Origin: an uncultured Gammaproteobacteria bacterium
GTDB lineage: Bacteria; Patescibacteriota; Patescibacteriia; 2-01-FULL-39-33
Length of the DNA stretch: 64,000 nucleotides
Direction: 5' to 3'
Assembly (NCBI GenBank): GCA_964558935.1
Contig: CAZLFP010000001.1
Span: 83,260-147,259, forward strand
Positions 1-15,778 of this stretch are shown here, piece after piece. Made by a program: the position numbers and the translations under genes. A model generated the notes under the pieces. It made no database searches. It saw only the letters and a program-made list of their open reading frames with translations, and was not told the DNA's origin. The stretch's first letter is position 1; each line of letters begins with the position of its first letter.

Positions 1-135
1 CTGAATATTTAAAAGAATTTTTTGTAATTCAATTATTTTTGGTTTTTGTATATTTAAAAATAGAGCACCAATAGCAGTAATTGAACCAACAACTTGTATG
101 TTTATTTTATTTTTTTTATAAAAATCTTCAATCAT
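1..135 (-). CDS. Partial ORF running off the left edge (begins MIEDFYKKNKINIQVVGSITAIGALFLNIQ); hypothetical
   Basis: Manual translation of the reverse strand from an ATG near 135; no stop before the window edge; weak RBS. Confidence 0.25.
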   Translation of the reverse strand, partial: MIEDFYKKNKINIQVVGSITAIGALFLNIQKPKIIELQKILLNIQ

Positions 136-220
136 ATTACTTAACTATACCAACCTCGCCATCATGTATTAATAAAGGCTGTTTATTAAAAATTTAACTT
201 CGAACTTAGATTTTAAAATA

Positions 221-1720
221 TTATTTATTAGTCAATTTCATAATACCATCTTTCAATACCATTGTAGCCTTACAATCATCCTCGTTATAGATCAATATTC
301 TTTCTAATATCTTTTCATCTTTAGTTTTTATGTATTCGTTAAACCATTGAATAGACAAGGCACCTGACGGGGTTTCATCTCTCCATCTAAAATCAAGGTA
401 TTGAGCTAGGGCTTTAAGAGAATAACTACCAACTGGCCAGTCTGTTTGTTTTAGTACAACATGATATAGATCAATGACATTAGGATTATCAAAAAAATCA
501 TTTACTTCATCTTCAGATATAACATCAGGATAAAGTTTCTGCATTTTTTTATAAGTTGTTTTTTCGTGTGGAGAATAATAGTAAACTGCGAAATCATCTT
601 GAGGTAGACTTCTGATATAATTCCAAAACTTTGCCCATGTTTCTTTTTCTGATTCTGTGCTTATTTCTTTTGCGGTAAAATCTAAAAATCTTTCACCACT
701 AGGGCTTCTCTCGTAAACGCCGTGCAAATAAACAAACTCTTGAGTCGGATCATCTTCAATATCAAAAAATAATTCATAACTAACATCTGGGAAAGTTATA
801 TCACCACAGACAACTGGTTTTTTAATATTTTTCAATATATTTGCTCGAGTAATCATTTTATCAATTGTCTTTTGTCCCAAGCCTTTTAAAAATTCTTTAT
901 CGCTTTCTTTTTGTTTTACCAATTCATCAACATTTAGTGTTAAAATATCTTGAATGGTATTTACTTGTAGATCTTCACTTAATAAATCTCTTTTACTTCT
1001 TCCTAAATAGAAAAGGCAGGTTGGATCATCAGCATCATGTGCCCATTTTTTACAACTACTATACCAAGGACACAATTTACATGCTCCTGCCATAGCTGGT
1101 TTATTTTGAAACTTATTTTCTAACAATAAACTTACTTTGTTAAATACATCTTTATACAATTCCCAAAAACTTATTTTCTTTATTTTTCCAATTGGGCTAT
1201 CTAAATTATATACGACCTCATGACCTCTAATATCATAAATTAATCCTTGTTTTTTAGTTTCAAATCCTAAGCGAATGAGAGCATCACAATACAAAGCAAG
1301 CTGTACAGCATAATGTTCTTTTGGTTTGCCTTCGTCGCCCTCATCTTCGTCAACACCTTCTAAACCCATTCCAGATTTTATGTCTACTGGAATATATGTA
1401 CCGTCTGGATTTAGTTTCAATAAGTCTGGAATACCAACAATATTGTCTACCATTAATACACCTTGATAAATAAGAGGGATCTTGTTTCTCATGGCTTCAA
1501 TTGTCTTTTGAAATCTTTCTTCAAGTGAACCCTTTGATAAATCAAAATATTCTCCTAATTCAGCTATTACTTTTTTCTCATACAAAACACCCTTGTCCCA
1601 TAGAAGTTGAACAAATGGATTTATATCTTTTACTTTTTCATCTTGTGGACCATAAACATCTCGCCACACACGGTGAGGACATTGCATGAAGTCATATAGT
1701 TTTGAAGCGGTTATGTGCAT
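221..1720 (-). CDS. RecB-family nuclease of the TM0106 type: N-terminal Cas4-like PD-(D/E)XK nuclease with a 4-Cys cluster, plus a DnaQ/RNase H-like fold
   Basis: 499-aa ORF. Has N-terminal Cys (MQCPHRVW), the motifs IPDLL...VDIKSG and QLALYCDAL (the QxxxY RecB motif), and a C-x2-C...C cluster (CKLCPWYSSC). The C-terminal half carries an FDIEDD motif reminiscent of DEDD exonuclease motif I. A 4-nt gap to the upstream gene implies the same operon. Confidence 0.6.
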   Translation of the reverse strand: MHITASKLYDFMQCPHRVWRDVYGPQDEKVKDINPFVQLLWDKGVLYEKKVIAELGEYFDLSKGSLEERFQKTIEAMRNKIPLIYQGVLMVDNIVGIPDLLKLNPDGTYIPVDIKSGMGLEGVDEDEGDEGKPKEHYAVQLALYCDALIRLGFETKKQGLIYDIRGHEVVYNLDSPIGKIKKISFWELYKDVFNKVSLLLENKFQNKPAMAGACKLCPWYSSCKKWAHDADDPTCLFYLGRSKRDLLSEDLQVNTIQDILTLNVDELVKQKESDKEFLKGLGQKTIDKMITRANILKNIKKPVVCGDITFPDVSYELFFDIEDDPTQEFVYLHGVYERSPSGERFLDFTAKEISTESEKETWAKFWNYIRSLPQDDFAVYYYSPHEKTTYKKMQKLYPDVISEDEVNDFFDNPNVIDLYHVVLKQTDWPVGSYSLKALAQYLDFRWRDETPSGALSIQWFNEYIKTKDEKILERILIYNEDDCKATMVLKDGIMKLTNK

Positions 1721-1724
1721 ATTT

Positions 1725-3140
1725 CTATTTTAAAGGATGTGTTGGATTTTCAAAATTAACATAAAATGATCCACTCCTTGCTAAACAAGTTTGATTAGTT
1801 GAGTCAACAATAAAACATTCCACCCAATGCTTACCTGTATATAAACTTTGTTCCCATTTTTCTCTTCCTCCCGCAATAATTTCACCGCGTAAAGCTTTTT
1901 CACCTAAGCTTTTAGCATGTTCTCCTGTGTTCACAACCTGCCAATAAATATTATAATTCCTATGTGGAATACATGGTATTGCTTTAAACAATAAATGATG
2001 AGCTATTGGTAAAATTTCATCGGAATTAAAAAGTTCCCGAACCATTGTCGGACTAGTTCTGCTTCCTACGTATAAACCAGCAATAATTTTTACTGAATAA
2101 GGATAACGGCCAGTATCTATTAAACCGAGATCAGATAATTGCATTTTATGGCCATGATCACCAAGAACAAAAAGAGAAATACTGTTATTAATTGATGTCA
2201 GACTTTTTTCAATTTCATATGTAAAACCATCACCGAAAACTTCTTGTAATTTTTTTATGCTATTTATAAGTTCTTCTTTATCTAATGCCTCATTTATTTT
2301 TTCTGTATATATTTTAATTTTATCTTTAAAATTAAAATATTGCCCTGGATACTTATCCCAATGCCTATTAAAATTTTCTGAGCTTAGAACAGGATTAATA
2401 ATTATCGGGGTAGAAGTATTTGACTGTAAAAAATTATTTAGTCTATTTATTAAAGTTTTTAATGCTGTTGGGATATCACTATACAAAGAAACATCATCGT
2501 CATTATAGACTTGCATCCCCAATAATGTGGTTATCAAAACTGATTTAACAGAAAAATTTTGTTTTATATCCCGCAAGTATTTAATTAACTTGATTACAGT
2601 AACCAACTTTCCTTCTGTAATTATATTTTTTTCCTCAAACCATTCCGCATAGCCATCAGCATCAGTCTGTTCTAAAACATTATCATTTTTGTTCATTATA
2701 AAATAAGATTCCCCCTGCTTAATACATGGAACAATATCCATATGAAAATCACCAGCATAATTGAGTGTAACACAACGAGTTTTCCCATTACTATCGACAA
2801 TATTTTCGTATCTTTCTGATTCTTTGAAAAGTGCCTTTAGATTACTAATATAATCTTTAGGTTCCAAATCTACAATTTCTTTTAATAAAAACAGAGCATC
2901 TACATCAAACTCATTATTTTCAGTAACGGGCTTTATAATAGTATCCTGTCTGTATGATCCTTGTGGTGTTAAGTCTATTATAAGATCCCTATATTTATCG
3001 CTATTTTCTAAAAATGTTTTAATCGTATCTAATTTGGATTTAGCGGTTTTAATACGATCTGGATTTAACTCCACCTTGTTGGAAACAAAATCCGCAAATA
3101 CATCATTCAAATTCATATGTTTATTTTTTATTATTGACAT
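1725..3140 (-). CDS. cGAS/DncV-like nucleotidyltransferase (CD-NTase / SMODS family) with an uncharacterised ~200-aa C-terminal extension
   Basis: 471-aa ORF. The N-terminus carries a pol-beta-type nucleotidyltransferase signature: GS (QGSYRQD), then DVD 16 residues later, then a third acidic residue in an hhDhhP context (HMDIVPC). It overlaps the upstream SAVED gene by 20 nt. Confidence 0.6.
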   Translation of the reverse strand: MSIIKNKHMNLNDVFADFVSNKVELNPDRIKTAKSKLDTIKTFLENSDKYRDLIIDLTPQGSYRQDTIIKPVTENNEFDVDALFLLKEIVDLEPKDYISNLKALFKESERYENIVDSNGKTRCVTLNYAGDFHMDIVPCIKQGESYFIMNKNDNVLEQTDADGYAEWFEEKNIITEGKLVTVIKLIKYLRDIKQNFSVKSVLITTLLGMQVYNDDDVSLYSDIPTALKTLINRLNNFLQSNTSTPIIINPVLSSENFNRHWDKYPGQYFNFKDKIKIYTEKINEALDKEELINSIKKLQEVFGDGFTYEIEKSLTSINNSISLFVLGDHGHKMQLSDLGLIDTGRYPYSVKIIAGLYVGSRTSPTMVRELFNSDEILPIAHHLLFKAIPCIPHRNYNIYWQVVNTGEHAKSLGEKALRGEIIAGGREKWEQSLYTGKHWVECFIVDSTNQTCLARSGSFYVNFENPTHPLK

Positions 3141-3546
3141 TAATAGTATGAAGATAGCCTTTTTCTCTGTTTAGGTTAAAGATTTCTAATGTAAATCCAA
3201 AATTTCTATTCAAAGATCTACCACAAATAACTGCGACAGGAGCAGGTATGGCTGGGAAAATTTTTATAGAACTACTACCAGGATGTTCTGTTTCTAATTT
3301 TCCCATTAGATTATTAAATTTTTCTTCAAAATTTTGTAAGTCTTTTTCAGATTTTAAAAAGTTTACATTGGGATTACCAATAGTTATTTCATAAATATAA
3401 TGATTTTTGATAATCCTAGGGTCTATATTTTTTATATTAACCTTACCTGACAAGGATAAAAAAAGAGCGATTTTACTTTTATCTTTACCTTTTTTTAACA
3501 ATTGAGTGACATAATTTTGTGAGGCTTTTTTTGTTCCCATAGCCAA
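3121..3546 (-). CDS. cap5: C-terminal half of a Cap5-like effector (second SAVED repeat); in a different frame from the upstream half
   Basis: 141-aa ORF containing IKIFPAIPAPVAVICGRSL. This is the second copy of the hhhF-x-IPhP-hhhh-G-x-L Rossmann-like motif. The first copy lies in the preceding ORF, and the two ORFs overlap by 52 nt. Confidence 0.55.
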   Translation of the reverse strand: MAMGTKKASQNYVTQLLKKGKDKSKIALFLSLSGKVNIKNIDPRIIKNHYIYEITIGNPNVNFLKSEKDLQNFEEKFNNLMGKLETEHPGSSSIKIFPAIPAPVAVICGRSLNRNFGFTLEIFNLNREKGYLHTINVNNKK

Positions 3547-4280
3547 CTATCACCCTTGCGATGTCTTTGAAAAAATTTTGTAGATATTTTGTCTTCTAAT
3601 TTAGAACCAAAATACATTAACAAAGGAATGGGTCCTATAGCAAAAATAGAAACATGTCCGGCGTTTTGTCTTCTAAAATCACGATAGAAATCATCTACCT
3701 TACAATCAATCTCTTTTCTGCTAAAATCCCAATAAGTTTTAGAATAGGATATGCAAGTATTGGTAAAATCAATAAAAAACATATCGGAACCATCATAAGA
3801 ATATAATTTATCATTAAGAAGTGCGGATAAGACTGAGGAATTATCTAAAATAACTTTGTCCGACCCAATATTACCCGCAAATTTTAATACCTTTGTTTTT
3901 TTTGTAACATTTCCAGCAAAAAAAATCCTTCTTTCATTATCAATTTTCCATTGTTTCAACAATCCTATAGTGTAATCTCCTTCTAAAATTTGTTTGTCGA
4001 CTGTAGTGTGACATGTTGGACATAAGAGCATTAAATTATCTAAAGTATTTAAATACAACTTATTGAGATCTGTCCTAGCCCCTCCAGGGCTGAAAGCTCT
4101 AATATGTGCCTTTTCTGCTAAGTTAATATCTTTTTGAGTCAAAGCATCTTTAATAACTAAACGATTACAAATCTGACATCTTCCAGCACTTTTTGCAAAT
4201 AAAATAGTCTGTGTACTGGAATTAATATTTCTAAATTTCTTTCCAGCTTTTGGTATTGGTATAAATTCTTTTGAGTGCAT
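3495..4280 (-). CDS. cap5: N-terminal part of a Cap5-like effector: HNH endonuclease domain plus the first SAVED repeat; frame breaks at an A7 homopolymer
   Basis: 261-aa ORF. HNH motifs are present: CQIC...AHIRAFSPGG...N...LLCPTCH. VSIFAIGPIPLLMYFGSKL follows as the first SAVED half. The ORF ends 6 codons after the run caaaaaaag (about 3524-3530, reverse strand AAAAAAA). A +/-1 change in that run fuses it in frame to ORF 3121..3546. Confidence 0.6.
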   Translation of the reverse strand: MHSKEFIPIPKAGKKFRNINSSTQTILFAKSAGRCQICNRLVIKDALTQKDINLAEKAHIRAFSPGGARTDLNKLYLNTLDNLMLLCPTCHTTVDKQILEGDYTIGLLKQWKIDNERRIFFAGNVTKKTKVLKFAGNIGSDKVILDNSSVLSALLNDKLYSYDGSDMFFIDFTNTCISYSKTYWDFSRKEIDCKVDDFYRDFRRQNAGHVSIFAIGPIPLLMYFGSKLEDKISTKFFQRHRKGDSWLWEQKKPHKIMSLNC

Positions 4281-4283
4281 AAA

Positions 4284-4865
4284 TTACATTTTTACAACAT
4301 CAACAACCTTTCCTTGGATGATTATATTATCAAAAATATAAAGAGGTTTGTGAATTGGATTTGATGAATTAGGATTTAATGTTACTAGACCACTTTTTCG
4401 ATTAAAAATTTTAACTGTAGCGTCATCACCGATTAAAGCGACAACTTTATCACCATCGTCTGCTGTTTCTTGTTTATGTACCAAAACTAAATCACCATCT
4501 TCTATTCCAGATTTATCCATACTATCACCCATAGCTCTGAGAAAAAAATAATCACTCGGATTATCTGGTACTTTGTATGGAACAAATGCCTCAATGTTTT
4601 GTTCAGCTAGTAATGGAGTGCCACAAGAAATGCTCCCAACAACAGGGATGTTAAAAAGTTGGTTTAAGGTTTTTTTTATTTTTAAATTTCTAGAATCTTC
4701 TAAAAATTCATTTTTCTTTAATTCTTCGGTGTGTCTTTGAACTGAACTGGTATTTTTATAACCTAAAAATTCCTTTACCTCTCGTAGGGTTGGAGAGTTA
4801 CCCATCTTTGTTGTTAACTCTTGAATTGCAGATAAAACCTCTTTTTGTTTTTTAGTTATTTTCAT
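4284..4865 (-). CDS. lexA: LexA-type repressor (winged-helix DNA-binding domain plus S24 self-cleaving peptidase)
   Basis: 193 aa. The C-terminal domain has GDSM (catalytic Ser) and VVALIGDDATVKIF (catalytic Lys). A linker Cys-Gly sits where Ala-Gly is usually found. The gene lies 3 nt upstream of cap5 on the same strand. Confidence 0.8.
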   Translation of the reverse strand: MKITKKQKEVLSAIQELTTKMGNSPTLREVKEFLGYKNTSSVQRHTEELKKNEFLEDSRNLKIKKTLNQLFNIPVVGSISCGTPLLAEQNIEAFVPYKVPDNPSDYFFLRAMGDSMDKSGIEDGDLVLVHKQETADDGDKVVALIGDDATVKIFNRKSGLVTLNPNSSNPIHKPLYIFDNIIIQGKVVDVVKM

Positions 4866-4887
4866 AAAATATTATTTACAATATAGC

Positions 4888-4954
4888 AGTATTTTACCGC
4901 ACAACGCGTAATTGTGTCAAGTACAATCAAAAATACCGCTATTTTGCGGTACTT
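4888..4954 (-). promoter_or_regulatory. lexA promoter (TTGACA-N18-TAAAAT on the reverse strand) with two palindromic operator-like sites
   Basis: The perfect palindrome TACCGC-TATTTT-GCGGTA (about 4934-4951) lies just upstream of -35. A degenerate copy TACCGC-ACAAC-GCGTAA (about 4896-4912) lies in the -35/-10 spacer. Confidence 0.45.
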
Positions 4955-4959
4955 TTTGA

Positions 4960-6012
4960 TTATTTTATATCTTGTATAACTTGTAATATTTTATCTACTT
5001 TAGGACCCCAGTCCTCTATAAGCACAGCTGGTCGTGTCCGCAAGTAGTCATCACCGAACTCAAACCCTAATTCAGCTAGTTTATACTTAAAATTGATAGC
5101 GGATTGTTCATTATCTCTCGCTACCCATTCGAAATTGAGAGCCAATCGTTTATCTGTACTCAGTGTTACAAGTGACTTGGAGCTTATGGATTCAAATATT
5201 GGGCTGAAAGATCCATAGGATCCTGTACCGAAGTTTATTTGATCAGCATTGTCTTTGCAAAAGTTATAAAACTGTTCAAAGTATTTGTAATAATCACCAA
5301 GTTTATCTTTTGCATCTTGCAACACAGATTGCTCATTCCATCTTTGCCTGATTGATGATGAAGAAGTACCAACATCCTTTTTAACTTCAGCTCCAAATAA
5401 CTTAGGAATTAGAATCTCATTATTTTCATATTTGTAATATTCCAGTTCAACTGCATAAACAGTGAAGCGACTATTTTCATTTATAAAGATCATCAAATCT
5501 TTTAACTGAGAATGGAGTTTATCCATAAGAACAACAAATTTGAAATTTCCTTTATTCAAATTGTTTTGCATGTTGGACAAGAGTGTTTCCACTTCAATAT
5601 CTTCAATACCGAAAAATTCAATTAGCTTTTGATTCAGATCAAGATTAAATTGTTTTTGTGTACCTTGGTTTAGTCTGGAAGTAAAATCACTAAAATCAAT
5701 ACTGCTTTTCCAGAGCGAAGCTCCGTAGTCTAATACTTGAGCGACAACGGTTCGTTTGTCTGGATTTTTATATAGTTTAGTTTCAACTAGATAGATGTCG
5801 CCATCTTTATCTATTCCAACAGCATCAATCGGACCACTGTTGGTTGGAAATTCTCGAGCGAGAATTAGAAGTCTGATATCTTCTTTAATTTCATAAAGAG
5901 GGATACTTTCAGGATTATCATAAATATATTGTTGGAGAAAGTTTTCCGAATCAAAATGAGAAGGATCAAGACGTTGGGCGTTTTTACCGCCTTTTGAAAT
6001 TATAATTGACAT
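4960..6012 (-). CDS. Hypothetical protein with an N-terminal PD-(D/E)XK-like nuclease motif
   Basis: 350-aa ORF with a D-x(n)-E-x-K arrangement (PIDAVGIDKDGDIYLVETKLYK). Same strand as the lexA operon and directly upstream of it. No obvious SD. Confidence 0.45.
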   Translation of the reverse strand: MSIIISKGGKNAQRLDPSHFDSENFLQQYIYDNPESIPLYEIKEDIRLLILAREFPTNSGPIDAVGIDKDGDIYLVETKLYKNPDKRTVVAQVLDYGASLWKSSIDFSDFTSRLNQGTQKQFNLDLNQKLIEFFGIEDIEVETLLSNMQNNLNKGNFKFVVLMDKLHSQLKDLMIFINENSRFTVYAVELEYYKYENNEILIPKLFGAEVKKDVGTSSSSIRQRWNEQSVLQDAKDKLGDYYKYFEQFYNFCKDNADQINFGTGSYGSFSPIFESISSKSLVTLSTDKRLALNFEWVARDNEQSAINFKYKLAELGFEFGDDYLRTRPAVLIEDWGPKVDKILQVIQDIK

Positions 6013-6016
6013 AAAT

Positions 6017-6200
6017 TGTGTAGGTTAGGATTTTGTCGAATTCGAGAAACACAAAAGGCCTCCCGAACCAGCTGACGCCCCCTTACGGTGACATCACTAC
6101 ACCCTTTCGGGTATAGACCTAACCTACAAGTACTGGTCGGAAGACCATCTCTATGTAGGTTAGGTTTTATGACCATGCCACCGCCGAAGCGATGGTTTAG
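6017..6200. other. GC-rich structured intergenic element with the 10-mer GTAGGTTAGG repeated three times (two direct, one inverted); candidate ncRNA or recombinase/regulator site
   Basis: The motif sits at about 6020-6029 and 6155-6164 on the plus strand, and as CCTAACCTAC at 6118-6127. Copies 2 and 3 form an 11-bp perfect stem. It encloses a GGAA-capped 5-bp hairpin (tggtc-ggaa-gacca). Local GC is about 55% against a 35% background. Confidence 0.35.
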
Positions 6201-6349
6201 GCCATTAAATTGTTAAGTATATTATATACCAAATTTGGCTATGAATCAATAGTAGCTTAAATACAGAAGTTTGCGAAGTCTAGTTACCAACAGCTGGAAT
6301 TTTGGGTTTTTTTAGAGTTATAAGAGATATTTAGAGTTGTTAAGACTCC

Positions 6350-6380
6350 TTTGAGCAATTCTTGATATGAGGTAAAATAT
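6350..6380 (+). promoter_or_regulatory. Candidate sigma70-like promoter for the 6387 gene (TTGAGC-N16/17-TAAAAT)
   Basis: Sequence match located just upstream of the ATG. Confidence 0.3.
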
Positions 6381-6386
6381 AGTTAT

Positions 6387-7220
6387 ATGGCTACTAATAG
6401 TGAAAAATTAATTTTGATGGAATATCCTCGCAACCATTCCTTTTGGGGTAATGTTAAAGAAGCAAGGAATAATTTGGGTATGAACGAAAATGGATATTCA
6501 AGTTTAAAAGATTTTCAAAAATGTAATGAATTTTTTTCTGCAGAAACTCTTAAAAAAATAAGTCTATTTGGAACAGTTATTGAGGGAAATAATAATATTA
6601 CGTTAATTTCAGCAAAACGAACGCGAAATACTTACAAAGAAATTTTGAACGAAGCAAAAAAGATAGCCTTGCGAGAAAAACTTGGAACGGATGATGTTAG
6701 TTTGAGATTAATATCTGAATGTATTTTATTTGATAAATGTTTATTAAAAAATAAAAATACACCAAAAATGGTATTGCATTTTAATAATGATAAAAATGGT
6801 AATACTCTTATTTTGGAAATTTTTAGAGACACTAGATTACATGACTTTAAAAATAACTGGAAAGAAATGAAAGAAACAATAGATTATTTTCAAAAGTTTT
6901 TACCTGAAGGAAAATTTGATACAGAGCTACAAAAAAATAGTCTTTATGTATACATATTTAAAAACACCCAAAAACAAAACATTATTAACGCTTGGAGCAA
7001 AGAAGTATTACCCAAATTGCAACAGTTAGAAGGTTTTATGATTAGGAATAGATCAATAAAAATAAACAGATACAAAGAGATAATTGAAGAAGAAAAAAAC
7101 TATGTAAAAGATAGAAACAAAGATAAAACACAGACTTACCGGGTGGAGAATGATGATTCACATTTGCTGAAAAAATCTACTAAAGATAAAAGAAGGAAGA
7201 TTAAAAAATATCTAGATTAA
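6387..7220 (+). CDS. Hypothetical protein (first gene of the phage-derived cassette)
   Basis: 277-aa ORF, Lys-rich C-terminus, no recognisable motifs. Confidence 0.5.
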   Translation: MATNSEKLILMEYPRNHSFWGNVKEARNNLGMNENGYSSLKDFQKCNEFFSAETLKKISLFGTVIEGNNNITLISAKRTRNTYKEILNEAKKIALREKLGTDDVSLRLISECILFDKCLLKNKNTPKMVLHFNNDKNGNTLILEIFRDTRLHDFKNNWKEMKETIDYFQKFLPEGKFDTELQKNSLYVYIFKNTQKQNIINAWSKEVLPKLQQLEGFMIRNRSIKINRYKEIIEEEKNYVKDRNKDKTQTYRVENDDSHLLKKSTKDKRRKIKKYLD

Positions 7221-7322
7221 GTAAAACGCCCAGTATACGCCCCCTTAATTCTGGAACAGATATTGAGGTCAATATAAAATGAATTATGTAGAACACTTAA
7301 TTCATTTTTTAATTTAATCAAT

Positions 7323-8138
7323 ATGCAACAGCAAATTGAAATCGTGCAAGTACCAATCTCGCTTCTTCACGAAAGTGAGTACAATCCTCGTCGGATGACT
7401 GAGGATCAAGAAAGACACCTAACAGAAAGTATAAAGCGGTTTGGATTATCCAGCCCTTTAATCGTGAATAAATTCAAAGGTCGAGAAAACATTCTTATAT
7501 CAGGTCACCAAAGATACAAAATTGCTAAAAAGATTGGGATGAACGAAGTCCCTGTTGTATATCTTGAATTAGATCCGAAATCGGAACAAGAACTAAATTT
7601 GAGGTTTAATGCAAATATTTGCGAATGGAATACTGATTTACTAAAAGAGCTGGATCTAAAATTAATTCTTGACGTTGGTTTTGATGATCAAACTCTTTCG
7701 GATATGTGGGATTCAGCGTTAGAGATTGAAAATGATGACTTTGATATTGAAAAAGAAATTGAAATTGCCAAAACAACCGACATAAAAACTGGAGATATGT
7801 TTATTCTTGGCAATTCTAGATTAATTTGCGGGGATAGCACAGATCCCGAGGTGGTCAAAAAACTGGTTGGTAACGAAAAAATGGATTTAATAATTTCTGA
7901 TCCCTTATTCAACATAAATCTAAGTTATGACAAGGGGGTTGGTGGAAAAGCCAATTATGGTGGTTCAGCAAACGATAATAAAAGTGATGATGAATATAAA
8001 CAGTTTATTAAAAAACTGTTGCAAACGCACTGTTGGTATCTAAACCAGACCTTCATTGCTTCTACTTTTGCGACCAACGTTACATATGGATTTTACAAAC
8101 TATTTATCAAGAACTGGGCATCAAAAATGAACGAGTAA
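7323..8138 (+). CDS. ParB-like nuclease domain fused to a DNA methyltransferase (N-terminal part with motif IV SDPLFN); frameshifted relative to the next ORF
   Basis: The N-terminus shows a ParB/Srx fold signature (VPISLLHESEYNPR...GHQRY). The ICGDSTDPEVVKKL and DLIISDPLFN motifs follow. The downstream ORF overlaps by 105 nt and carries the SAM-binding motif. Confidence 0.6.
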   Translation: MQQQIEIVQVPISLLHESEYNPRRMTEDQERHLTESIKRFGLSSPLIVNKFKGRENILISGHQRYKIAKKIGMNEVPVVYLELDPKSEQELNLRFNANICEWNTDLLKELDLKLILDVGFDDQTLSDMWDSALEIENDDFDIEKEIEIAKTTDIKTGDMFILGNSRLICGDSTDPEVVKKLVGNEKMDLIISDPLFNINLSYDKGVGGKANYGGSANDNKSDDEYKQFIKKLLQTHCWYLNQTFIASTFATNVTYGFYKLFIKNWASKMNE

Positions 8139-8590
8139 ATATATGGGTTAAAAATGGGTTCAGTAGCACGCCCAGGAACGCATTTAATAAATGTTACGAA
8201 CCTGTTGTTTACGGTCGAATTGGTAAACCATATCTAAATGAAAATAATCGAAACTTGAATGAAATTCTTAACAAGGAGGTCGGTAATGGTAATCGTGCCT
8301 CAGATGACATTTTGGACATGATTGATTTGTGGCTAGTAAAGCGTTTGCCAGGAAATGAATATTTACACGCAACACAGAAACCAATTGACCTCTATGAAAA
8401 ACCACTTCGACGTTGTTCACGCCCAGGACAAAACGTCTTAGATTTATTCGCTGGATCAGGGACAGCACTTCTGGCATGCGAGCAAATGAGAAGAAAAGCA
8501 TTTGTAGTGGAGATTGACCCAATTTTTATTCAATTAATTATAAACAGATATGAGCAATACTCAAATCAAAAAGCTATCAAGCTTAATTAA
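8033..8590 (+). CDS. C-terminal part of the same ParB-methyltransferase (motif I FAGSGT)
   Basis: Carries NIWVKNG...HATQKPIDLYEKPLRRCS...VLDLFAGSGTALLACEQMRRKAFVVEID, matching beta-class N4/N6 MTase order (IV then I). Confidence 0.6.
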   Translation: MVSKPDLHCFYFCDQRYIWILQTIYQELGIKNERVNIWVKNGFSSTPRNAFNKCYEPVVYGRIGKPYLNENNRNLNEILNKEVGNGNRASDDILDMIDLWLVKRLPGNEYLHATQKPIDLYEKPLRRCSRPGQNVLDLFAGSGTALLACEQMRRKAFVVEIDPIFIQLIINRYEQYSNQKAIKLN

Positions 8591-9332
8591 ACCCGGCACA
8601 ATTATTGAGTTGGGACAACACACCCTTCTCTGCGGGGATTGTCGCAATAAGGAAATGATGAGCAAATACTTAGAAGGTCGAAAAATTGATTCTGTTAACG
8701 CAGATATGCCTTATGGTATATCCATAGTAGAAAGCAAACAAGGATTCAAACAAAAACTTGCCAACGAAACTATTATCCAAAATGACCACATTCAATCAGA
8801 TGAAGAATATATCAAATTTACTAAAGATTGGATTGAGGTAATAAAGCCTTACTTAGCGAGCAAAAACAGTTTCTATCTGTTTAACTGCGACAAAATGATA
8901 TTTGCTTTGCGTGATGGCATGAAGCAGGCTGGAGTTAATTTCTCACAAATGTTGATCTGGATAAAAAATTCAGCAGTAATTGGCAGGAAAGATTATCTTC
9001 CTATGTTTGAACTTATCGCCTACGGCTGGTATGGCACACACAAGTTTATGAAAAGTAAGGATAAGTCGGTGCTGTTTTATCCAAGGCCACAAAGTAGTCC
9101 ATTCCACCCTACATCCAAGCCTGTTGCGTTAATTCGACATCTGATTTTGAATAGCACTAGTATCGGCGACACTGTCTATGATGGATTTTTAGGTGGTGGA
9201 ACTTGTTTGCTCGCTTGTGAACAAACCAAAAGAAAATGTATTGGCGTTGAACTAGAACCAATACACTGTGCTAGTACTATTTTTCGTTGGGAAAAATTGA
9301 CTGGCAAAAAATGTAATATTATTAATCCTTAA
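8550..9332 (+). CDS. Second DNA methyltransferase (beta-class N6A/N4C; motif IV DMPY, motif I FLGGGT)
   Basis: Carries SVNADMPYG...HPTSKPVALIRHLI...DGFLGGGTCLLACEQTKRKCIGVELEP. No adjacent restriction endonuclease. Confidence 0.7.
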   Translation: MSNTQIKKLSSLIKPGTIIELGQHTLLCGDCRNKEMMSKYLEGRKIDSVNADMPYGISIVESKQGFKQKLANETIIQNDHIQSDEEYIKFTKDWIEVIKPYLASKNSFYLFNCDKMIFALRDGMKQAGVNFSQMLIWIKNSAVIGRKDYLPMFELIAYGWYGTHKFMKSKDKSVLFYPRPQSSPFHPTSKPVALIRHLILNSTSIGDTVYDGFLGGGTCLLACEQTKRKCIGVELEPIHCASTIFRWEKLTGKKCNIINP

Positions 9333-9342
9333 ATTTAAACAT

Positions 9343-9750
9343 ATGACTCCAGAAGAAAAACAAAATCAAGAAAAAATAAAGGCATTATTTATTGAACAAT
9401 TAAAAAAGACACCTGTTGTGCAAGTAGTCTGTGAAAAAATCCAAATTGGTAAGAGTAGTATATATCGCTGGAAAAAATCTGATAAAGAATTTAAAAAGGC
9501 AGTAGATGAAGCCATGTCTGAAGGAACAGATTATATTTCTGATATGGCTGAGAGTAGATTAATTGAAGCTATAAGAGATAGAAATTTGCGTGCCGTATTT
9601 TTTTGGCTTAAGTCCCATTCAAATCGTTATTCCACTAAAGTTGAAATCAATGGACGACTTAAGATGGAAAATGAACCACTAACGCAGGATCAACAGGACT
9701 TAATAAAAAAAGCCTTGGAATATTCAGGTTTGTTAAATGATAAAAAATAG
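9343..9750 (+). CDS. terS: Phage terminase small subunit-like protein
   Basis: 135 aa with an HTH-like N-terminus (GKSSIYRWKK). Immediately upstream of the large terminase gene and overlapping it. Confidence 0.5.
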   Translation: MTPEEKQNQEKIKALFIEQLKKTPVVQVVCEKIQIGKSSIYRWKKSDKEFKKAVDEAMSEGTDYISDMAESRLIEAIRDRNLRAVFFWLKSHSNRYSTKVEINGRLKMENEPLTQDQQDLIKKALEYSGLLNDKK

Positions 9751-11278
9751 TATGAAAAATGAATATTTGAAAGAAATATTGTCAGACAACAAATTACGTG
9801 TTGCCCTGGCAAAAGAATCACACCAATGGTTCTTCAATTTATACTTTGCCCATTATATAGATTGTCCATCAGCTCCATTCCATAAAAGATTTTTTGAAAT
9901 TACTGAGGATGAAAATATTAACATGGCAGTATTAGTTAGTTTTAGAGGTTCGGCAAAATCTACCATTATGACTACATCATATCCATTATGGGCAGTTATG
10001 GGGAAGCAAAGACGAAAGCTTGTTGTTATAGTTGGTAGAACGCAACGTCAGACTAAACTTATGATAGATAATTTGAAGCGTGAGCTAGAATCTAACCCTA
10101 TTTTATATAAAGATATGGGACCCTTTAAAGAACAGGGCGGTGATCTAGGTTCATATGCACTATATTTACCATGGTATGACGCAAAAATTATTGCCGTGTC
10201 AATGGAACAAACTATTCGTGGTATTCGCCATGGTAAGTACCGTCCAGATCTGATTCTATTGGATGATATTGAGGATCTCGATAGTGTAAAAACTATGGAA
10301 GGTAGAGATAAAATATTTAATTGGATTGCAAGTGAAGTTTTGCCAGCAGGACAAATTAATACCAAAGTTATTTGTATTGGAAATCTTTTGCATGAAGATT
10401 CAATGCTCATGAGATTGAAACGAAAAATTCAAAATAAAGAATTAGATGCAGTGTTTATGGAAATTCCTCTAATTGAGGATAATGGTGATATAACATGGAC
10501 GGGAATGTATCCAAATATGGAAGCAATTGAAAAGAAAAAACGACAGATTTTTGACGAGTATGCTTGGCACCGTGAATACATGCTAAAAATCATTTCTGAT
10601 AGAGGACGAATTATTCAACCAGAGTGGATAAAAAAATATAAGGATATTAAAGATGTTTTAACAGGAAGTGATTGTCGTAGTTTAACGATGACTAGTATTG
10701 ATCCAGCAATCTCTAAAGATGAAAATGCTTGTAAAACAGCTATGGTGTCCCTACGTGTTTTTAATTCTCGTAACAGATTGAAAATTATTGTATTACCAAA
10801 TCCTATCAACGAACGATTAACAATGAATGAAACAATTGAAAATGCAAAAAATATTTCAACTGTATTAGGTAATGGATATAAGACTGAATTATTAATTGAG
10901 GACGTTGGAATGCAAAAAGCATTTATTCAGGAGTTAGAAAGATTCCATTATCCAGTAACAGGATTCCCAGTGCACGGACAAGACAAACGCGCTAGATTGA
11001 AATTTGCCAGTCATCTGGTACAAGAAGGTGTTGTTTTTTTTCCAGAAAAGGGCTGTGAAGATTTGATAAACCAAATTGTAAATTTCGATACAGAAAAATA
11101 TCATGATTTGGCGGATGCTTTTTCAATGGCTTTATTAGATATCATTAAACGTGACAGTAACGAAGAATTATTCGAAGGTGTCGGCGAAGCAACTGCGTCG
11201 TGGGAAGAAGATCAAAATGAAAATATATCCAGACGAATAATAATAAGGGCTGGTATTGATCCAGATAATTGGGATTAA
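9737..11278 (+). CDS. terL: Phage terminase large subunit (ATPase + nuclease)
   Basis: 513 aa. Walker A-like SFRGSAKST and Walker B LILLDDIED are present, giving terminase_6-like organisation. Confidence 0.75.
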   Translation: MIKNSMKNEYLKEILSDNKLRVALAKESHQWFFNLYFAHYIDCPSAPFHKRFFEITEDENINMAVLVSFRGSAKSTIMTTSYPLWAVMGKQRRKLVVIVGRTQRQTKLMIDNLKRELESNPILYKDMGPFKEQGGDLGSYALYLPWYDAKIIAVSMEQTIRGIRHGKYRPDLILLDDIEDLDSVKTMEGRDKIFNWIASEVLPAGQINTKVICIGNLLHEDSMLMRLKRKIQNKELDAVFMEIPLIEDNGDITWTGMYPNMEAIEKKKRQIFDEYAWHREYMLKIISDRGRIIQPEWIKKYKDIKDVLTGSDCRSLTMTSIDPAISKDENACKTAMVSLRVFNSRNRLKIIVLPNPINERLTMNETIENAKNISTVLGNGYKTELLIEDVGMQKAFIQELERFHYPVTGFPVHGQDKRARLKFASHLVQEGVVFFPEKGCEDLINQIVNFDTEKYHDLADAFSMALLDIIKRDSNEELFEGVGEATASWEEDQNENISRRIIIRAGIDPDNWD

Positions 11279-11365
11279 TAAGTTACCAACAGTTTGGCTC
11301 TGGACTACAGGAACGGGACGCGTCATTACTGGTAGTAGAAGTAATAAATAACCAAAACTACCAGT

Positions 11366-12697
11366 ATGATGGAGTATCAACAAAAAACCATGCCCCAAGG
11401 GCAAAATACGACGGTTTTAGAGGATTTTACGCCAAAAGTGAGGTATTGCCTATACGCACGAAAGAGCACAGAGCAAGACGAGTTACAGGCGCTCTCAATA
11501 GATTCACAGATCAAGGAGATGTTAGAGTTAGCTAATAAGGAGAATCTGGATATTGTCGAGATCAGACGAGAAAGTCACTCAGCCAAAGATTCAGGGCAAC
11601 GGCCAGTGTTCAGTAAACTTTTATACGATATTCGGCAAGGAATGTTTAGTGGTATCCTTTGCTGGGCCCCTGACAGATTAAGTAGAAATGCTGGTGATCT
11701 TGGGTCAGTGGTAGATTTAATGGATCAAGGGTTTTTACAAGAAATACGAACACATAGTCAGACATTTACTAATAATCCAAATGAAAAATTCCTGTTGATG
11801 ATTTTAGGTAGTCAAGCAAAATTAGAAAATGACCATAAAGGTGAAAACGTAAAAAGAGGACTTAGAGCAAAGTGCGAACAAGGCTGGCGACCAGGGCAAC
11901 CACCACTTGGATATCTTCATGATAAATTTGCAGATAAAGGACAAAAGAAAGTATATATTGATTCTGATAGAGCACCTTTTATCAAACAAATGTTTGAACT
12001 AGTGGCTTATGAAAATTATAGTGGACGACAAATTGATAAATGGATAAAGAAAAATAATCTAAAAACGAAAAAGAAAAAAAATATAAGTTTAAGCATGATT
12101 TATAGAATTCTTGGGGATTGTTATTACTACGGTGAATTTGAATATCCAGTTGGTAGTGGAAAGTTTTATAAAGGTGGACACGACCCGATAATATCCAAAG
12201 AATTATTTCTAAAAGCAAGAGAAAATCTAACATCACCACCAAGGCGACACCCTGGAACTGTGGAATTTGCATTCACAAAATTATTATATTGTGGAAACTG
12301 TGGCTCTGGGATAAGTGCGGAAGAAAAATTTAAACATCAAAAAAATGGTAATATTCACAGATATGTTTATTACCATTGTTCACGAGGTAAAGATAGAGAT
12401 TGTCGGGAGGGAGCAATACGTGAGGAAGATCTCATCAAACAAATGGTTGGTTTGATTGATAAGATCGAAGTGGACCAATTAAAAATTGGCGAAAAAGTGA
12501 AAGCTGAAATGGAGAGATTTAGGAAGTTTAGTTCTATGCTAGGACAAACTGCTGAACAGCTCAAAAATGTTAACCTAGACGCGAGAAATTACGCTAAGTA
12601 TATTCTTTTAGAAGGGAGCAAGGAGGAAAAAAGAGAATTATTGGAGTGTATGAGTGGTAAGGTGGTGCTGAAGAATAAAGAATTAAACATTGTATAA
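11366..12697 (+). CDS. Large serine recombinase/integrase (resolvase domain + recombinase domain + zinc ribbon)
   Basis: 443 aa. The catalytic Ser sits in the context YARKSTEQDELQALSIDSQ. The Cys cluster CGNCGS...YYHCS is also present. Confidence 0.8.
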   Translation: MMEYQQKTMPQGQNTTVLEDFTPKVRYCLYARKSTEQDELQALSIDSQIKEMLELANKENLDIVEIRRESHSAKDSGQRPVFSKLLYDIRQGMFSGILCWAPDRLSRNAGDLGSVVDLMDQGFLQEIRTHSQTFTNNPNEKFLLMILGSQAKLENDHKGENVKRGLRAKCEQGWRPGQPPLGYLHDKFADKGQKKVYIDSDRAPFIKQMFELVAYENYSGRQIDKWIKKNNLKTKKKKNISLSMIYRILGDCYYYGEFEYPVGSGKFYKGGHDPIISKELFLKARENLTSPPRRHPGTVEFAFTKLLYCGNCGSGISAEEKFKHQKNGNIHRYVYYHCSRGKDRDCREGAIREEDLIKQMVGLIDKIEVDQLKIGEKVKAEMERFRKFSSMLGQTAEQLKNVNLDARNYAKYILLEGSKEEKRELLECMSGKVVLKNKELNIV

Positions 12698-12718
12698 TTA
12701 AATTTCATTGTTTTAAAA

Positions 12719-15700
12719 CTATCTGTTTTCTTCAACAATTTTAATTTCTTCATCCGTTAAATCGTAAAGCTTATAAACTAACTTATCAATTTCTTCTTCT
12801 AATTCAGAAGTATCAGCTTCTGAATTTTCTTTTTTAATTTTTAATATTTGGTCAACCAAATTTACAATCTCATTTTTTTGTGTATCGTCGACATCAGGTA
12901 TTGGATAATTATTTATCATATCCTTGGTGAAGCTAATTCCTTGATTATAGCTTGACGCGGGATATTTTTCTTTTAGAAAGAAAAGAATTAATTTGTTATT
13001 TAATAGAGCTAGTAAAAATTTCAAATTATCTATTTTATCGGAAATTACAATAAGTGTGGTCTTCGCAGGAATAGTATCCCCACAGCTATCTAAAGTTCCA
13101 TCAAGTAAATTTAATCCTTTTATAATAATTTTATATTTACTCGCCTTTTGTCCATATGAATTAGGGAATTCTTTAATAAAAATCTCTTTATTAACTACAG
13201 GGCATAAATATTTATCCTTTAAATATGTCATTTCTTTTTTGCCCCACCGAGAAGAATACTTACTGATGGTTCCAGTATTTATAATTTTGAAATACTTACT
13301 AGGATCAAAATTATCTTTATTAATATTTTCTAAAAGAGGTTTAAGTTTATATGCGTCAGATGTAGCACAGGCATTTTCACAAATGGCATAATCGGATAAT
13401 TTTTTAATAAATTTCTCTATTTTTTCTAGAAAAACCAAGTTTTCAGAAAAAATAAAATCAAGAGCATAAGGATCCATCAATTTATCTTTGGGATAGTTTC
13501 GTTTATACTGGAATCCATCTTTAGTGTATTCAACTACTTTTATGGAATCATGTTCTGTTTTTGAAATAAAAGTTATTATTGAATCTACTTTTGCAGTTTC
13601 AAATACATTCCGACCAGACTTTAAAATAGAATAAATATTACTAATAATACCTCTTCTTAATTCATCTCCAAAGGATTTAGAAATCCATTTATCAGGTGTG
13701 ATATATACCAAAATTCCCTCCTTGGTTATATTATGAAATCCTAATTCCAAAAAAGCTATGTAAATATCCCAATTTCCTTTTGTCCAATTATAGTTTTGTT
13801 GAATTGTATCTCTAAGTTCAAGTTGTCCATTTTTTTTCATGCTTTCTGAATCAATGTACGGTGGATTGCCAATTACGACATCAAAACCATTTATACCAAA
13901 CATAAATTCAGAATCAAAAAATTCTGTCACTTGTTCATTGTCAAAGGGGTGATATGATTGTAATTGTTCTAGTTTTTTAGATTTACCAAAAAGATTACCT
14001 TGATTTTTTTCTTCTAAAAGTTTATTAAACTTAATCTTCAATAGTTCTTTAACTTTAGGACTTCGAGCATTAAAATATTTTTCTCTAATTTCTTGCATTT
14101 CTTCTTCAAGCTTATCAGCTTGATCAAGCATTTGAGTTTGTTTGTTGGCATCTAAAGGAATTAGACTATTTGCACAAACAAATTTAAAATCAAGATTTGG
14201 TAGTGGTTTTATTTTATTACTGTCTACATCTTCATCTACGACAATAGACAACCAGGCTCTAAGACGGGAGATTTCAACCGCCATTGGTTCAATATCAACC
14301 CCATGTAAATTATTTTTGATAATTTCCAACTTCTTTTTGTAGGAGTCAAATGTTGCGTCTAATCTTTCGTATGTTTGTAAAAGCAAAGATAACATACCCA
14401 TCGGAAAAGCACCTGAACCGCAAGCAGGATCAAGAATTTTTAATTCATCAAGAGCTTTTAATATATCGTATTTGTATGGTTTTAATTTGTCACGATAATT
14501 TCTTTGTTGATCTCTCCAATCATGTTCTTTGCTGTCCAATAAATTATCAATTAATTCAAAAGATTTTCCTTCATCCCCAAGCTTATTTTTTAAATATTGT
14601 CGTAAACTCTCACGGGACATATAATCAACAATTTCTCTAGGAGTATAAAAAGCACCTTTTGCTTTTCTGGCCTGTTCACCAGTTTCTTCCGTTTGTTCTG
14701 CTAACAAGTTTTCAAAAATACGTCCTAACATTTCAGGATCAATGGCAACTTGTTGAAAAGTGCTAGTACTTTCGTCAGTGGTGAAATTGTAATGATGAAG
14801 AAAATCAATAATCCTATCAAAATAATCTGCTGGGAATGTAAGTTTTGTATCACCGTACTTATCTCCTAATTTTTCTTCAAATAAACCACCGTTCAAAAAT
14901 GGAGTAATCTTATCAATACCTTTTTCTCTATCTTCAATAGGAGTGTTAAAAACCTTGAAAAATAATGTTTCTAATTTTTCTCTGTAATATTCTGTTGCAT
15001 TTTTTCCCTTTATCTTAAAATAATCAACTTCGGTATTTATAATTCCTTTTTTATCCAAAAACCAACAAAATACCAATCTGCCAATTAATCGATTAACAAA
15101 ATATGAAGCGTGCTTATCATCAAAAACTTTTTCCTTAATGAGATGTTGCTTTAATTCTACAAAGAATGAACTTACCTCTTTATAGAAACGTTTATTCAAA
15201 GGTTCAATGTCAAAACTTTGCCACAACATCTCGTGAACCTGAGCCTTATTATCAAAATCAAACTCCTGCAACCATTTTGCAAAAATTTCTTGCTGTGTAA
15301 TTGTTAGCTCACCTGACAATTCTAATGTACGTATTATATAATTCTTACTTAAAACCACTATTACACGATCGGATTTTTCTGGAATCACAAAATCAATACC
15401 TACATTTAAATTTCCATAAAAAGGCTCATCCTCAAAATTTGGAGTAAGAGCCACAAGCCAACTAATGATTGATTTTTTCGGTTTTTTAACCCAATATACT
15501 TTCAAATCTATTTTTTCAAGGTTGTCATTAGATATTTTATAAGAAGCTCTGCGATCAGCAAAACCTTCCGCTTCCATAAACCAGCCTGCGTTTGATCTAA
15601 TTTTACCCTGAGAATCTGTAAATAATTTCCATTCATTACTTGATTCAATACCAAATAATGATACCAAATTATTAATTACATTTTGAGTATTTGAAAAACT

Positions 15701-15778
15701 GTTTTCTTGTGACAGAATTTTTATTGATTCGTTTAATTCTTGAATTTTTTCTGGTAATTTATTTATTGTCTTTGACAT
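12719..15778 (-). CDS. Large gamma-class N6-adenine DNA methyltransferase with type IIG/PglX-like architecture (N-terminal domain, MTase core, C-terminal putative target-recognition domain)
   Basis: 1019 aa. Motif X is GAFYTPREIVDYM, motif I ILDPACGSGAF, motif IV VIGNPPY. Overlaps the downstream helicase gene by 20 nt. Confidence 0.75.
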   Translation of the reverse strand: MSKTINKLPEKIQELNESIKILSQENSFSNTQNVINNLVSLFGIESSNEWKLFTDSQGKIRSNAGWFMEAEGFADRRASYKISNDNLEKIDLKVYWVKKPKKSIISWLVALTPNFEDEPFYGNLNVGIDFVIPEKSDRVIVVLSKNYIIRTLELSGELTITQQEIFAKWLQEFDFDNKAQVHEMLWQSFDIEPLNKRFYKEVSSFFVELKQHLIKEKVFDDKHASYFVNRLIGRLVFCWFLDKKGIINTEVDYFKIKGKNATEYYREKLETLFFKVFNTPIEDREKGIDKITPFLNGGLFEEKLGDKYGDTKLTFPADYFDRIIDFLHHYNFTTDESTSTFQQVAIDPEMLGRIFENLLAEQTEETGEQARKAKGAFYTPREIVDYMSRESLRQYLKNKLGDEGKSFELIDNLLDSKEHDWRDQQRNYRDKLKPYKYDILKALDELKILDPACGSGAFPMGMLSLLLQTYERLDATFDSYKKKLEIIKNNLHGVDIEPMAVEISRLRAWLSIVVDEDVDSNKIKPLPNLDFKFVCANSLIPLDANKQTQMLDQADKLEEEMQEIREKYFNARSPKVKELLKIKFNKLLEEKNQGNLFGKSKKLEQLQSYHPFDNEQVTEFFDSEFMFGINGFDVVIGNPPYIDSESMKKNGQLELRDTIQQNYNWTKGNWDIYIAFLELGFHNITKEGILVYITPDKWISKSFGDELRRGIISNIYSILKSGRNVFETAKVDSIITFISKTEHDSIKVVEYTKDGFQYKRNYPKDKLMDPYALDFIFSENLVFLEKIEKFIKKLSDYAICENACATSDAYKLKPLLENINKDNFDPSKYFKIINTGTISKYSSRWGKKEMTYLKDKYLCPVVNKEIFIKEFPNSYGQKASKYKIIIKGLNLLDGTLDSCGDTIPAKTTLIVISDKIDNLKFLLALLNNKLILFFLKEKYPASSYNQGISFTKDMINNYPIPDVDDTQKNEIVNLVDQILKIKKENSEADTSELEEEIDKLVYKLYDLTDEEIKIVEENR

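Follow-up and report, generated by a model that had tools for sequence, protein, structure and literature searches.

A type I CBASS cassette with a putative LexA-family controller in a Patescibacteria-like defence island

Within a 64-kb stretch of DNA (the window), positions 1724-4923 of the minus strand are, on balance, probably a self-contained, horizontally swappable cassette, in which a promoter with a candidate operator palindrome precedes the genes for LexA, Cap5 and a CD-NTase, the whole making up a LexA-controlled type I CBASS. Judging from sequence, gating by RecA/SOS would be the most likely form of this regulation, and a LexA-type, DNA-damage-cleavable repressor is apparently a kind of CBASS regulator not previously described. 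How cells restrain suicidal defence systems until the moment of need is under active study, and a LexA-type autoprotease that comes in one package with CBASS would, if true, couple defence expression directly to classical RecA/SOS signalling. To our knowledge, the immunity of candidate-phyla-radiation bacteria has been little studied. A low-GC defence island adjoining tRNA-Gln in a Patescibacteria-like genome houses the cassette, which has a LOOT-RNA/PD-(D/E)XK unit on one side and a conserved TM0106 nuclease gene on the other; its clean borders make it a compact, testable 3.2-kb unit of promoter, repressor, effector and cyclase.

The minus-strand genes follow one another as lexA (4284-4865), cap5 (3121-4280), the CD-NTase gene (1725-3140) and the TM0106 nuclease gene (221-1720). 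A sequence-only reading of the window had described these open reading frames as a tightly packed CBASS with a Cap5-type effector and an SMODS cyclase. The frames are real, only about 3-4 nt separate them, and profile searches return significant matches to both SMODS and, through the Cap5 profile, SAVED. The 471-aa cyclase matches SMODS at 3e-31 and the full-length cyclase model of PADLOC at 3e-132; its true start is likely Met9 at 3116, giving a product of 463 aa, the length of the database protein P0001. The catalytic residues G61 and S62 (GS60-62), D79, D81 and D135, which form the GS...DxD...D pattern, are invariant in 23 homologs. What had been taken for an uncharacterised C-terminal extension of about 200 aa turns out to be AGS-C (Pfam AGS_C, PF18134; residues 349-462, 1.5e-21, 77.2 bits against a gathering cut-off of 26.7 bits), a domain that about 40% of type I CBASS are reported to carry (bioRxiv 10.1101/2023.05.21.541620). 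Among solved structures, SmCdnG (8hsb) comes nearest, and since this match is weak (3e-13), we call the cyclase CdnG-like with caution.

The effector combines an HNH endonuclease with a SAVED sensor and is split into two frames, 3495-4280 and 3121-3546. Its predicted HNH-SAVED identity holds, as the halves cover positions 12-255 and 254-388 of the PADLOC profile PDLC00746 with no loss (7e-74 and 1e-37); the idea of a single polypeptide does not hold for the window copy, although the ortholog in the close relative L001 is intact at 388 aa. Alignment to that ortholog places a 1-nt deletion in an A-run at approximately 3527-3535. Because the window gene is split, the L001 protein served as proxy for the structural search, where its match to PDB entry 7rwk, deposited as a SAVED domain-containing protein, reached 1e-42. 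The deletion means either that this copy is disabled or that the assembly contains a homopolymer error, and the frameshifted copy may be dead. One could go further and regard the cluster as a decaying pseudogene array, a relic without functional effector whatever its former regulation; the lesion relative to L001 and a second 1-nt-deletion frameshift in a nearby ParB-MTase gene speak for this, but each of the two is the loss of one base in an A-run, as is typical of homopolymer assembly error, and the 141 codons beyond the shift are still open and 76% identical to L001. The site moreover reads A_AAA_AAG in the zero frame, so that a -1 slip would restore full-length Cap5, yet it is not conserved in L001. 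Genuine decay thus seems to us a minority possibility, albeit one to be taken seriously.

When every gene of the operon and its flanks was scanned with Pfam and PADLOC, no Cap2/Cap3 (E1/E2/JAB) and no HORMA/TRIP13 genes were found. With a cyclase carrying its catalytic residues, an adjacent effector bearing a cyclic-nucleotide sensor and no ancillary genes, the core is, by sequence, an ordinary two-gene CBASS (effector plus cyclase) of type I.

The first cistron encodes a 193-aa protein in which a winged-helix DNA-binding domain is joined to an S24 autopeptidase, matching Pfam LexA_DNA_bind and Peptidase_S24. It scores 137.2 bits over residues 2-192 against the NCBIfam lexA equivalog TIGR00498 (curated cut-off 110.95 bits), and its best solved relatives in the PDB are LexA proteins (1e-22), with CI-family proteins at 8e-4. 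An alignment of relatives places the cleavage position at Cys81-Gly82 and shows the Ser115/Lys152 dyad to be invariant; Cys-Gly is present in most of the CBASS-linked LexA relatives in the same alignment. The earlier view that a bona fide LexA with Cys-Gly heads the operon is thereby upheld. Among relatives of the protein, one has recA downstream and another ssb; recA was not found within the 64-kb window.

Upstream of lexA lies the strongest promoter match on the minus strand, a sigma-70-like TTGACA-18 nt-TAAAAT at 4891-4920 that scores 11/12, is the best minus-strand match within 1-7400 and recurs with the same architecture in L001 and in the related locus L084. It is the one strong promoter of the operon. 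Between its -35 and -10 elements, and overlapping the -10, sits an imperfect palindrome, TTACGC-N5-GCGGTAA (4894-4911, minus strand), which is a candidate LexA operator, proposed from three related promoters only: it is kept as TTACGCGTTATGCGGTAA in L001 and as TTACGCTATATGCGTTAA in L084, though the flanks diverge and the L084 LexA is 58% identical to that of the window. An operator inside the lexA promoter would imply negative autoregulation.

Comparison with another close relative, L248, defines the borders of the cassette. Homology spans the LOOT RNA, the gene for a 350-aa protein and the terminator up to 4924, and resumes exactly at the nuclease open reading frame, at 1723; in between, the position of lexA-cap5-cyclase is taken in L248 by an ATPase gene that has a promoter of its own, from which we conclude that promoter, lexA, cap5 and cyclase exchange as one unit. 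The left border coincides with an intrinsic terminator hairpin (4929-4956, minus strand) that ends the unit of the 350-aa gene (4960-6012, minus strand). The sequence-only reading had called the product of this gene PD-(D/E)XK-like, and its fold is indeed restriction-endonuclease-like and carries a D...ExK motif; it is NucS-like and belongs to the PADLOC candidate family PDC-S11. Its gene has its own promoter (6221-6249) and a LOOT RNA leader (Rfam RF03000; 6074-6203, minus strand). On the other side, the TM0106/Cas4-like RecB-family nuclease (221-1720, minus strand; 499 aa, with an RNase H-like domain) was likewise correctly identified, scoring 226.9 bits against TIGR03491 (curated cut-off 97.45).

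Counting these two nucleases as parts of the system was not borne out, as neither co-varies with CBASS. The 350-aa gene, with its own promoter, LOOT leader and terminator, is a separate unit. The TM0106 gene is probably co-transcribed with the cassette, but among 83 cyclase-related loci it occurs only in the window and in L001/L002, and we reject it as a CBASS accessory. Its homologs number over 1,600 (62-100% identity for the best 120 clusters), the cargo ahead of it ranges from Thoeris-like and type III R-M to ATPase and other genes, and it shares DNA homology with relatives only across its open reading frame; it is a conserved anchor outside the CBASS.

The linkage of repressor and CBASS recurs: in 16 of the 83 cyclase-related loci, mostly in Patescibacteria, an S24/LexA gene lies directly upstream of effector and cyclase, co-directionally in 12 and divergently in four, with Cap5 as effector in six and a patatin in ten. 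This synteny, with two effector types and in both orientations, supports the earlier proposal that a single protein would replace CapH plus CapP in coupling the system to DNA damage, which remains the most reasonable reading of the sequence data. Related LexA-CBASS loci occur in at least a dozen Patescibacteria representative genomes, so the suggestion that such systems are rare there is weak. Nor is the gene order non-canonical, effector-then-cyclase being usual in this cyclase clade (at least 32 of the 83 loci). Gene order, the AGS-C domain and the two nucleases are accordingly not to be counted as novelties of the system.

LexA relatives head varied cargo (CBASS, R-M, Thoeris-like, caspase-like, GmrSD), and most of the 80 closest ones in metagenomes have no adjoining cyclase, which means that this LexA is not CBASS-specific. 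Could it be a plain chromosomal SOS LexA, with defence cassettes landing downstream because the interval between lexA and the TM0106 nuclease gene is an integration hotspot, and CBASS regulation amounting to incidental read-through? Passing the equivalog model, having cellular LexAs as best structural relatives, the recA and ssb neighbours mentioned above and the proximity of LexA to the TM0106 nuclease in four separate contexts all fit such a gene. We nevertheless regard this as quite unlikely: lexA sits in a low-GC island and is missing from the same site in L248, the palindrome is found nowhere else in the 64 kb at up to two mismatches, not even close to recJ or dnaB, and promoter palindromes differ among LexA relatives that are 40-58% identical, more in the manner of immunity-type repressors.

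A different rival arises from the 6.5-kb phage-like block at 6194-12726 (plus strand), which comprises an unknown 277-aa gene, the frameshifted ParB-MTase, an MTase, TerS, TerL and a large serine recombinase. LexA often adjoins such an integrase/terminase module divergently, which allows it to be read as a lysogeny-type repressor of the neighbouring phage- or satellite-like element, with CBASS a co-transcribed passenger, as rexAB is with lambda cI, and SOS mainly triggering excision and packaging instead of defence. The divergent layout [SerRec-TerL-TerS-MTase-ParB-MTase]<>[LexA-cargo] is seen in about ten of the 16 LexA-CBASS loci, in approximately eight of 27 LexA-centred loci with enough upstream DNA and on the P0135 contig; TerL, TerS and the integrase belong to phage families, and the module is present in IMG/VR. 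However, the two parts also occur separately: L001 has LexA-CBASS without the module, L248 has the module with the LOOT RNA and the 350-aa gene but no LexA, and no LexA is seen in those IMG/VR copies for which 5-8 kb of upstream DNA is available. In the window, the terminator, the 350-aa gene and the LOOT RNA intervene between lexA and the module, the candidate operator was not found ahead of the module genes, and its position within the lexA promoter points to negative autoregulation. We therefore consider an element repressor unlikely.

Under the preferred reading, that of a LexA-controlled CBASS, LexA bound at its own promoter would hold the toxic abortive-infection genes at a low level. 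Phage replication or DNA damage would generate RecA-ssDNA filaments and, by analogy with the family, stimulate LexA to cleave itself at Cys81-Gly82 through the Ser115/Lys152 dyad, and the derepressed operon would yield more cyclase and Cap5. Infection would then trigger the cyclase, possibly via AGS-C, to make a cyclic dinucleotide, which may be 3',2'-cGAMP-like by analogy with CdnG-Cap5 systems, the identity of the product being a guess. Binding of this signal by SAVED would switch on the HNH nuclease, so that DNA is degraded and the infection aborted. More tentatively, and with slightly less than even confidence, we suggest that LexA-family S24 repressors are a fourth class of regulators of the 'controller of adjacent pathway' type, made of a single protein and dependent on RecA. 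Together with their own promoter and a set of defence genes (a CBASS whose effector is Cap5 or a patatin, a Thoeris-like system, R-M or another system), they would move as plug-in cassettes, and the exchange would take place at a hotspot in Patescibacteria and the phage-like elements of these bacteria; SOS would thus gate abortive infection in these minimal genomes.

Among known systems, CdnG-Cap5 type I CBASS has the same core of SMODS CD-NTase and HNH-SAVED nuclease, without Cap2/Cap3 or HORMA/TRIP13, and the AGS-C domain is shared with many type I systems. The best PDB matches are 7rwk and 7rwm (both deposited as SAVED domain-containing proteins) for Cap5 and SmCdnG 8hsb for the cyclase. 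Here, in contrast, the promoter-proximal cistron is a LexA-family repressor, the cyclase is only distantly related to the solved CdnG and Cap5 is frameshifted in the window copy. Cellular LexA/SOS is matched in domain architecture, catalytic dyad and equivalog-level score; however, the protein here has Cys-Gly at the cleavage site, a pair shared with UmuD (PMC8565304), in place of Ala-Gly, its gene belongs to a variable island and is mobile together with the cargo, and no regulon sites are seen within the 64-kb window. Lambda cI-rexAB likewise places an S24 autoproteolytic repressor first and defence genes next, with phage-like genes nearby, but our protein is LexA-family and not CI-family, its operator position predicts negative and not positive autoregulation, and L001 has the cassette but lacks the phage-like block. 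Finally, CapH+CapP, CapW/BrxR and CapK+CapS are DNA-damage-responsive regulators of immune operons, in the accounts of which (PMC13373217; bioRxiv 10.1101/2022.04.27.489752) no mention of LexA or S24 was found. They share with this cassette a repressor gene beside an abortive-infection promoter and expected inactivation on DNA damage. We reject membership in CapH+CapP, as Pfam and PADLOC scans reveal no metallopeptidase gene; unlike all three, the cassette relies on one protein with its own S24 serine autopeptidase and has no metallopeptidase, WYL domain or kinase, and the signal would be RecA-ssDNA filaments as opposed to direct ssDNA binding.

GC content is ~30% over the initial 19.4 kb of the window, against ~39% in the remainder, and this low-GC stretch ends at a tRNA-Gln gene (19407-19480). 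On the minus strand near its left end lie, in order of transcription, a 350-aa PD-(D/E)XK ORF (p350, 4960-6012), a lexA-family gene (4284-4865; 193 aa, LexA_DNA_bind and Peptidase_S24 domains), ORFs of 261 aa (3495-4280) and 141 aa (3121-3546), a cyclase (1725-3140; 471 aa, SMODS and AGS_C) and a nuclease of the TM0106 family (221-1720; 499 aa, PDDEXK_1 and RNase_H_2; 227 bits, NCBIfam). Family searches identify the two middle ORFs as the HNH and SAVED halves of a single Cap5-type effector, covering positions 12-255 and 254-388 of the PADLOC model PDLC00746, and the cyclase matches the full-length PADLOC cyclase model at 3e-132; the SMODS, SAVED and HNH matches expected by the sequence-only reading were thus obtained. 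The 193-aa protein exceeds the NCBIfam lexA equivalog cut-off (137 vs 111 bits), and its solved relatives are cellular LexAs (1e-22), with lambda CI reaching only 8e-4. Its catalytic dyad Ser115/Lys152 is invariant among homologs, as are the catalytic residues of the cyclase, and its scissile position is Cys81-Gly82, a Cys-Gly site being known from UmuD (PMC8565304). The solved relative of the cyclase is SmCdnG (3e-13). For the effector, queried with the intact ortholog from the closely related locus L001 and not with the window's split gene, the solved relatives are 7rwk (1e-42) and 7rwm (3e-39), both deposited as SAVED domain-containing proteins; no relative of the TM0106 nuclease was found among solved structures. 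The system itself is a known one: type I CBASS with Cap5 and an AGS-C cyclase.

Two features that had been taken as unusual turn out to be ordinary. The C-terminal extension of the cyclase, described as uncharacterised, is AGS-C, a named Pfam domain that ~40% of the cyclases of type I CBASS are reported to carry (bioRxiv 10.1101/2023.05.21.541620). The supposedly non-canonical order of effector before cyclase is common among 83 loci with cyclase relatives (three from assemblies and 80 from GTDB species representatives): at least 32 of them have a Cap5 or patatin gene directly ahead of the cyclase, spanning Bacteroidota, Actinomycetota and Patescibacteria.

The window's cap5 is broken within an A-run, reading CAAAAAAAGCC where L001, with an intact 388-aa cap5, has the in-frame CAAAAGAAGGCC; past the shift the SAVED half keeps an open reading frame with 76% identity to L001. 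The shift falls on A_AAA_AAG in the zero frame, where a -1 slip would restore the frame. Since the slip site is not conserved, L001 having the in-frame CAAAAGAAGG, we do not propose programmed frameshifting and regard it as a minor possibility. The island carries a second single-base frameshift: a ParB-N6/N4 methylase gene (7323-8590, plus strand) has lost 1 nt near 8024 in a short A-run, leaving ORFs of 271 and 185 aa, with the intact 434-aa homolog in the related locus L003 as reference. Both look like homopolymer assembly errors, or else recent lesions. As a separate observation, DNA homology to L001 is lost just across the HNH stretch of Cap5 (window 3652-4284, minus strand, vs L001 8689-9322), where the protein is only 46% identical, against 76% for the SAVED half, 84% for the cyclase, 83% for LexA and 92% for the nuclease, a pattern suggesting that the nuclease head was replaced as a domain or has diverged quickly.

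The claim that a LexA-type gene heads the system holds. Of the 83 loci, 16 have an S24/LexA-type gene directly preceding effector and cyclase, most of them in Patescibacteria MAGs; 12 are co-directional and four divergent, and the effector is Cap5 in six and patatin in 10. Linkage kept across effector swaps and in both orientations fits the expectation for a regulator. The pairing extends beyond CBASS: in a LexA-centred metagenome scan (80 loci, 37-58% identity) the co-directional cargo downstream of LexA is mostly defence, with CBASS in ~7 loci, several R-M enzymes, ThsA/ThsB, caspase-like proteins and GmrSD, alongside one recA and one ssb. Such varied cargo indicates that this LexA is not CBASS-specific but heads variable defence payloads. 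Two loci of our set carry LexA-S24 domains apparently fused to DNA methyltransferases, a 525-aa C5 enzyme (L005, 1589-3166, minus strand) and a 507-aa N6/N4 enzyme (L246, 3477-5000, minus strand, with TaqI); both adjoin defence genes and are possible self-cleaving methylase regulators.

The anatomy of the promoter is compatible with autorepression. Only 3-4 nt separate lexA, cap5, cyclase (counted from Met9) and nuclease. A terminator hairpin (4956-4929) closes the upstream p350 gene and is followed by the best minus-strand promoter match, TTGACA-18-TAAAAT (4920-4891), between whose -35 and -10 boxes lies the palindrome TTACGC-GTTGT-GCGGTAA. The element occurs once in the 64-kb window and is retained amid divergent flanks in L001 and in the locus L084 (58% identity in LexA); in other relatives of LexA, different palindromes occupy this promoter position. 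From this we infer that the lexA promoter would be negatively autoregulated. The Gram-positive-type SOS box GAAC-N4-GTTC has a single, chance-level match in the window, inside a pyruvate phosphate dikinase gene. Another palindrome, TACCGC-N6-GCGGTA, is also unique in the window, and as a second operator it was set aside because the p350 terminator explains it equally well. Two lines, synteny and promoter anatomy, support a probable regulation of the CBASS cassette by LexA.

A comparison with locus L248 delimits this cassette. Their shared sequence takes in LOOT (the Rfam RNA RF03000), p350 and the terminator as far as 4924 and resumes with the nuclease at 1723 (~85% identical at the DNA level); between these flanks, lexA-cap5-cyclase is replaced in L248 by an ATPase gene that has a promoter of its own. 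Promoter, lexA, cap5 and cyclase thus behave as a single 3.2-kb cassette. The nuclease, which had been read as part of the system, does not travel with it: apart from the window, tblastn places it behind the cyclase in just two of the 83 cyclase loci, the near-identical L001 and L002, and it is absent from all 80 LexA-centred loci, so we reject it as a CBASS accessory. Its homologs number more than 1,600, the best 120 clusters being 62-100% identical and mostly from Patescibacteria, and in six further contexts it sits tightly behind very different cargo: LexA with a 157-aa gene and a ThsB-like TIR gene; LOOT with p350 and an AAA_13 ATPase; LexA divergent from a type III R-M Mod/Res pair; an R-M system with a 689-aa gene; a LexA-methylase fusion with TaqI; and a 482-aa gene upstream with a HEPN gene downstream. 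DNA homology of the window to each of the six ends at the limits of the nuclease ORF (220-1723), the DNA is variable on both sides of the gene (window, L244, L246, L248-L250), and defence cargoes abut its start codon at 1-61 nt. By its sequence context the TM0106 nuclease is a conserved anchor in a variable island, its gene marking a hotspot of cassette exchange.

LOOT (6074-6203, minus strand) lies 61 nt ahead of p350; Rfam labels it an sRNA, and here it behaves like a 5' leader. Among 262 loci it occurs only in or beside a serine-recombinase/terminase element or upstream of p350 homologs (besides window 6000-6249, minus strand, in L003, L004, L020, L026, L091, L102, L109, L176, L207, L211, L248 and L252-L254). 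A co-directional ORF of varying family always follows, at 48-65 nt in 12 of 13 loci, encoding the PD-(D/E)XK protein, proteins with a hydrophobic N-terminus (possibly membrane proteins, judged by eye) or others. In 10 of the 13, the 9-13 nt directly before the ORF start exactly duplicate the 5' strand of the long LOOT helix (CCTAACCTACA in the window, at the p350 start) and can therefore pair with the helix 3' strand. The copy varies between loci yet co-varies with LOOT, the longest complement averaging 9.5 nt to the locus's own LOOT vs 5.5 nt to that of another. This implies that the start-site copy and the LOOT 5' strand would pair with the 3' strand in a mutually exclusive manner, and suggests a cis-acting translation switch for a variable, possibly toxic cargo gene; LOOT may control toxic cargo genes as a riboregulator.

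A 6.5-kb phage-like block (6194-12726, plus strand) has its left junction within the LOOT 5' end. Absent from L001, the block comprises an unknown 277-aa gene and genes for the ParB-methylase, a methylase, TerS, TerL and a large serine recombinase, the latter five all of phage families. Terminase genes with no capsid genes nearby give it a satellite-like appearance. The module recurs across many loci of Patescibacteria, lies divergent to LexA-cargo in many cases, and is present in IMG/VR contigs by alignment-based search, a single-sequence TerL search of viral contigs giving no match; we therefore keep alive the alternative that the window's LexA is the repressor of this element. Against it for this locus, LexA-CBASS stands in L001 with no such module, the module in L248 comes with no LexA, and in the window a terminator separates the module from lexA. 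Beyond the block, at 12719-19250 (minus strand) and adjoining tRNA-Gln, lies a gene pair encoding an MmeI/Eco57I-like methylase of 1019 aa and a PLD-SNF2 helicase of 1163 aa. The pair, 94% identical to its L001 counterpart, resembles another restriction-type defence system of the island.

With the cassette read as LexA-controlled CBASS, the LexA-headed arrangement is probably undescribed: the literature searched, which was of limited coverage, yielded no description of LexA or S24 repressors linked to CBASS. The regulatory logic is similar to that of CapH+CapP, CapW and CapK+CapS (PMC13373217). In contrast to these, the window encodes an S24 autoprotease as its one regulator protein, for which RecA filaments are the expected signal.
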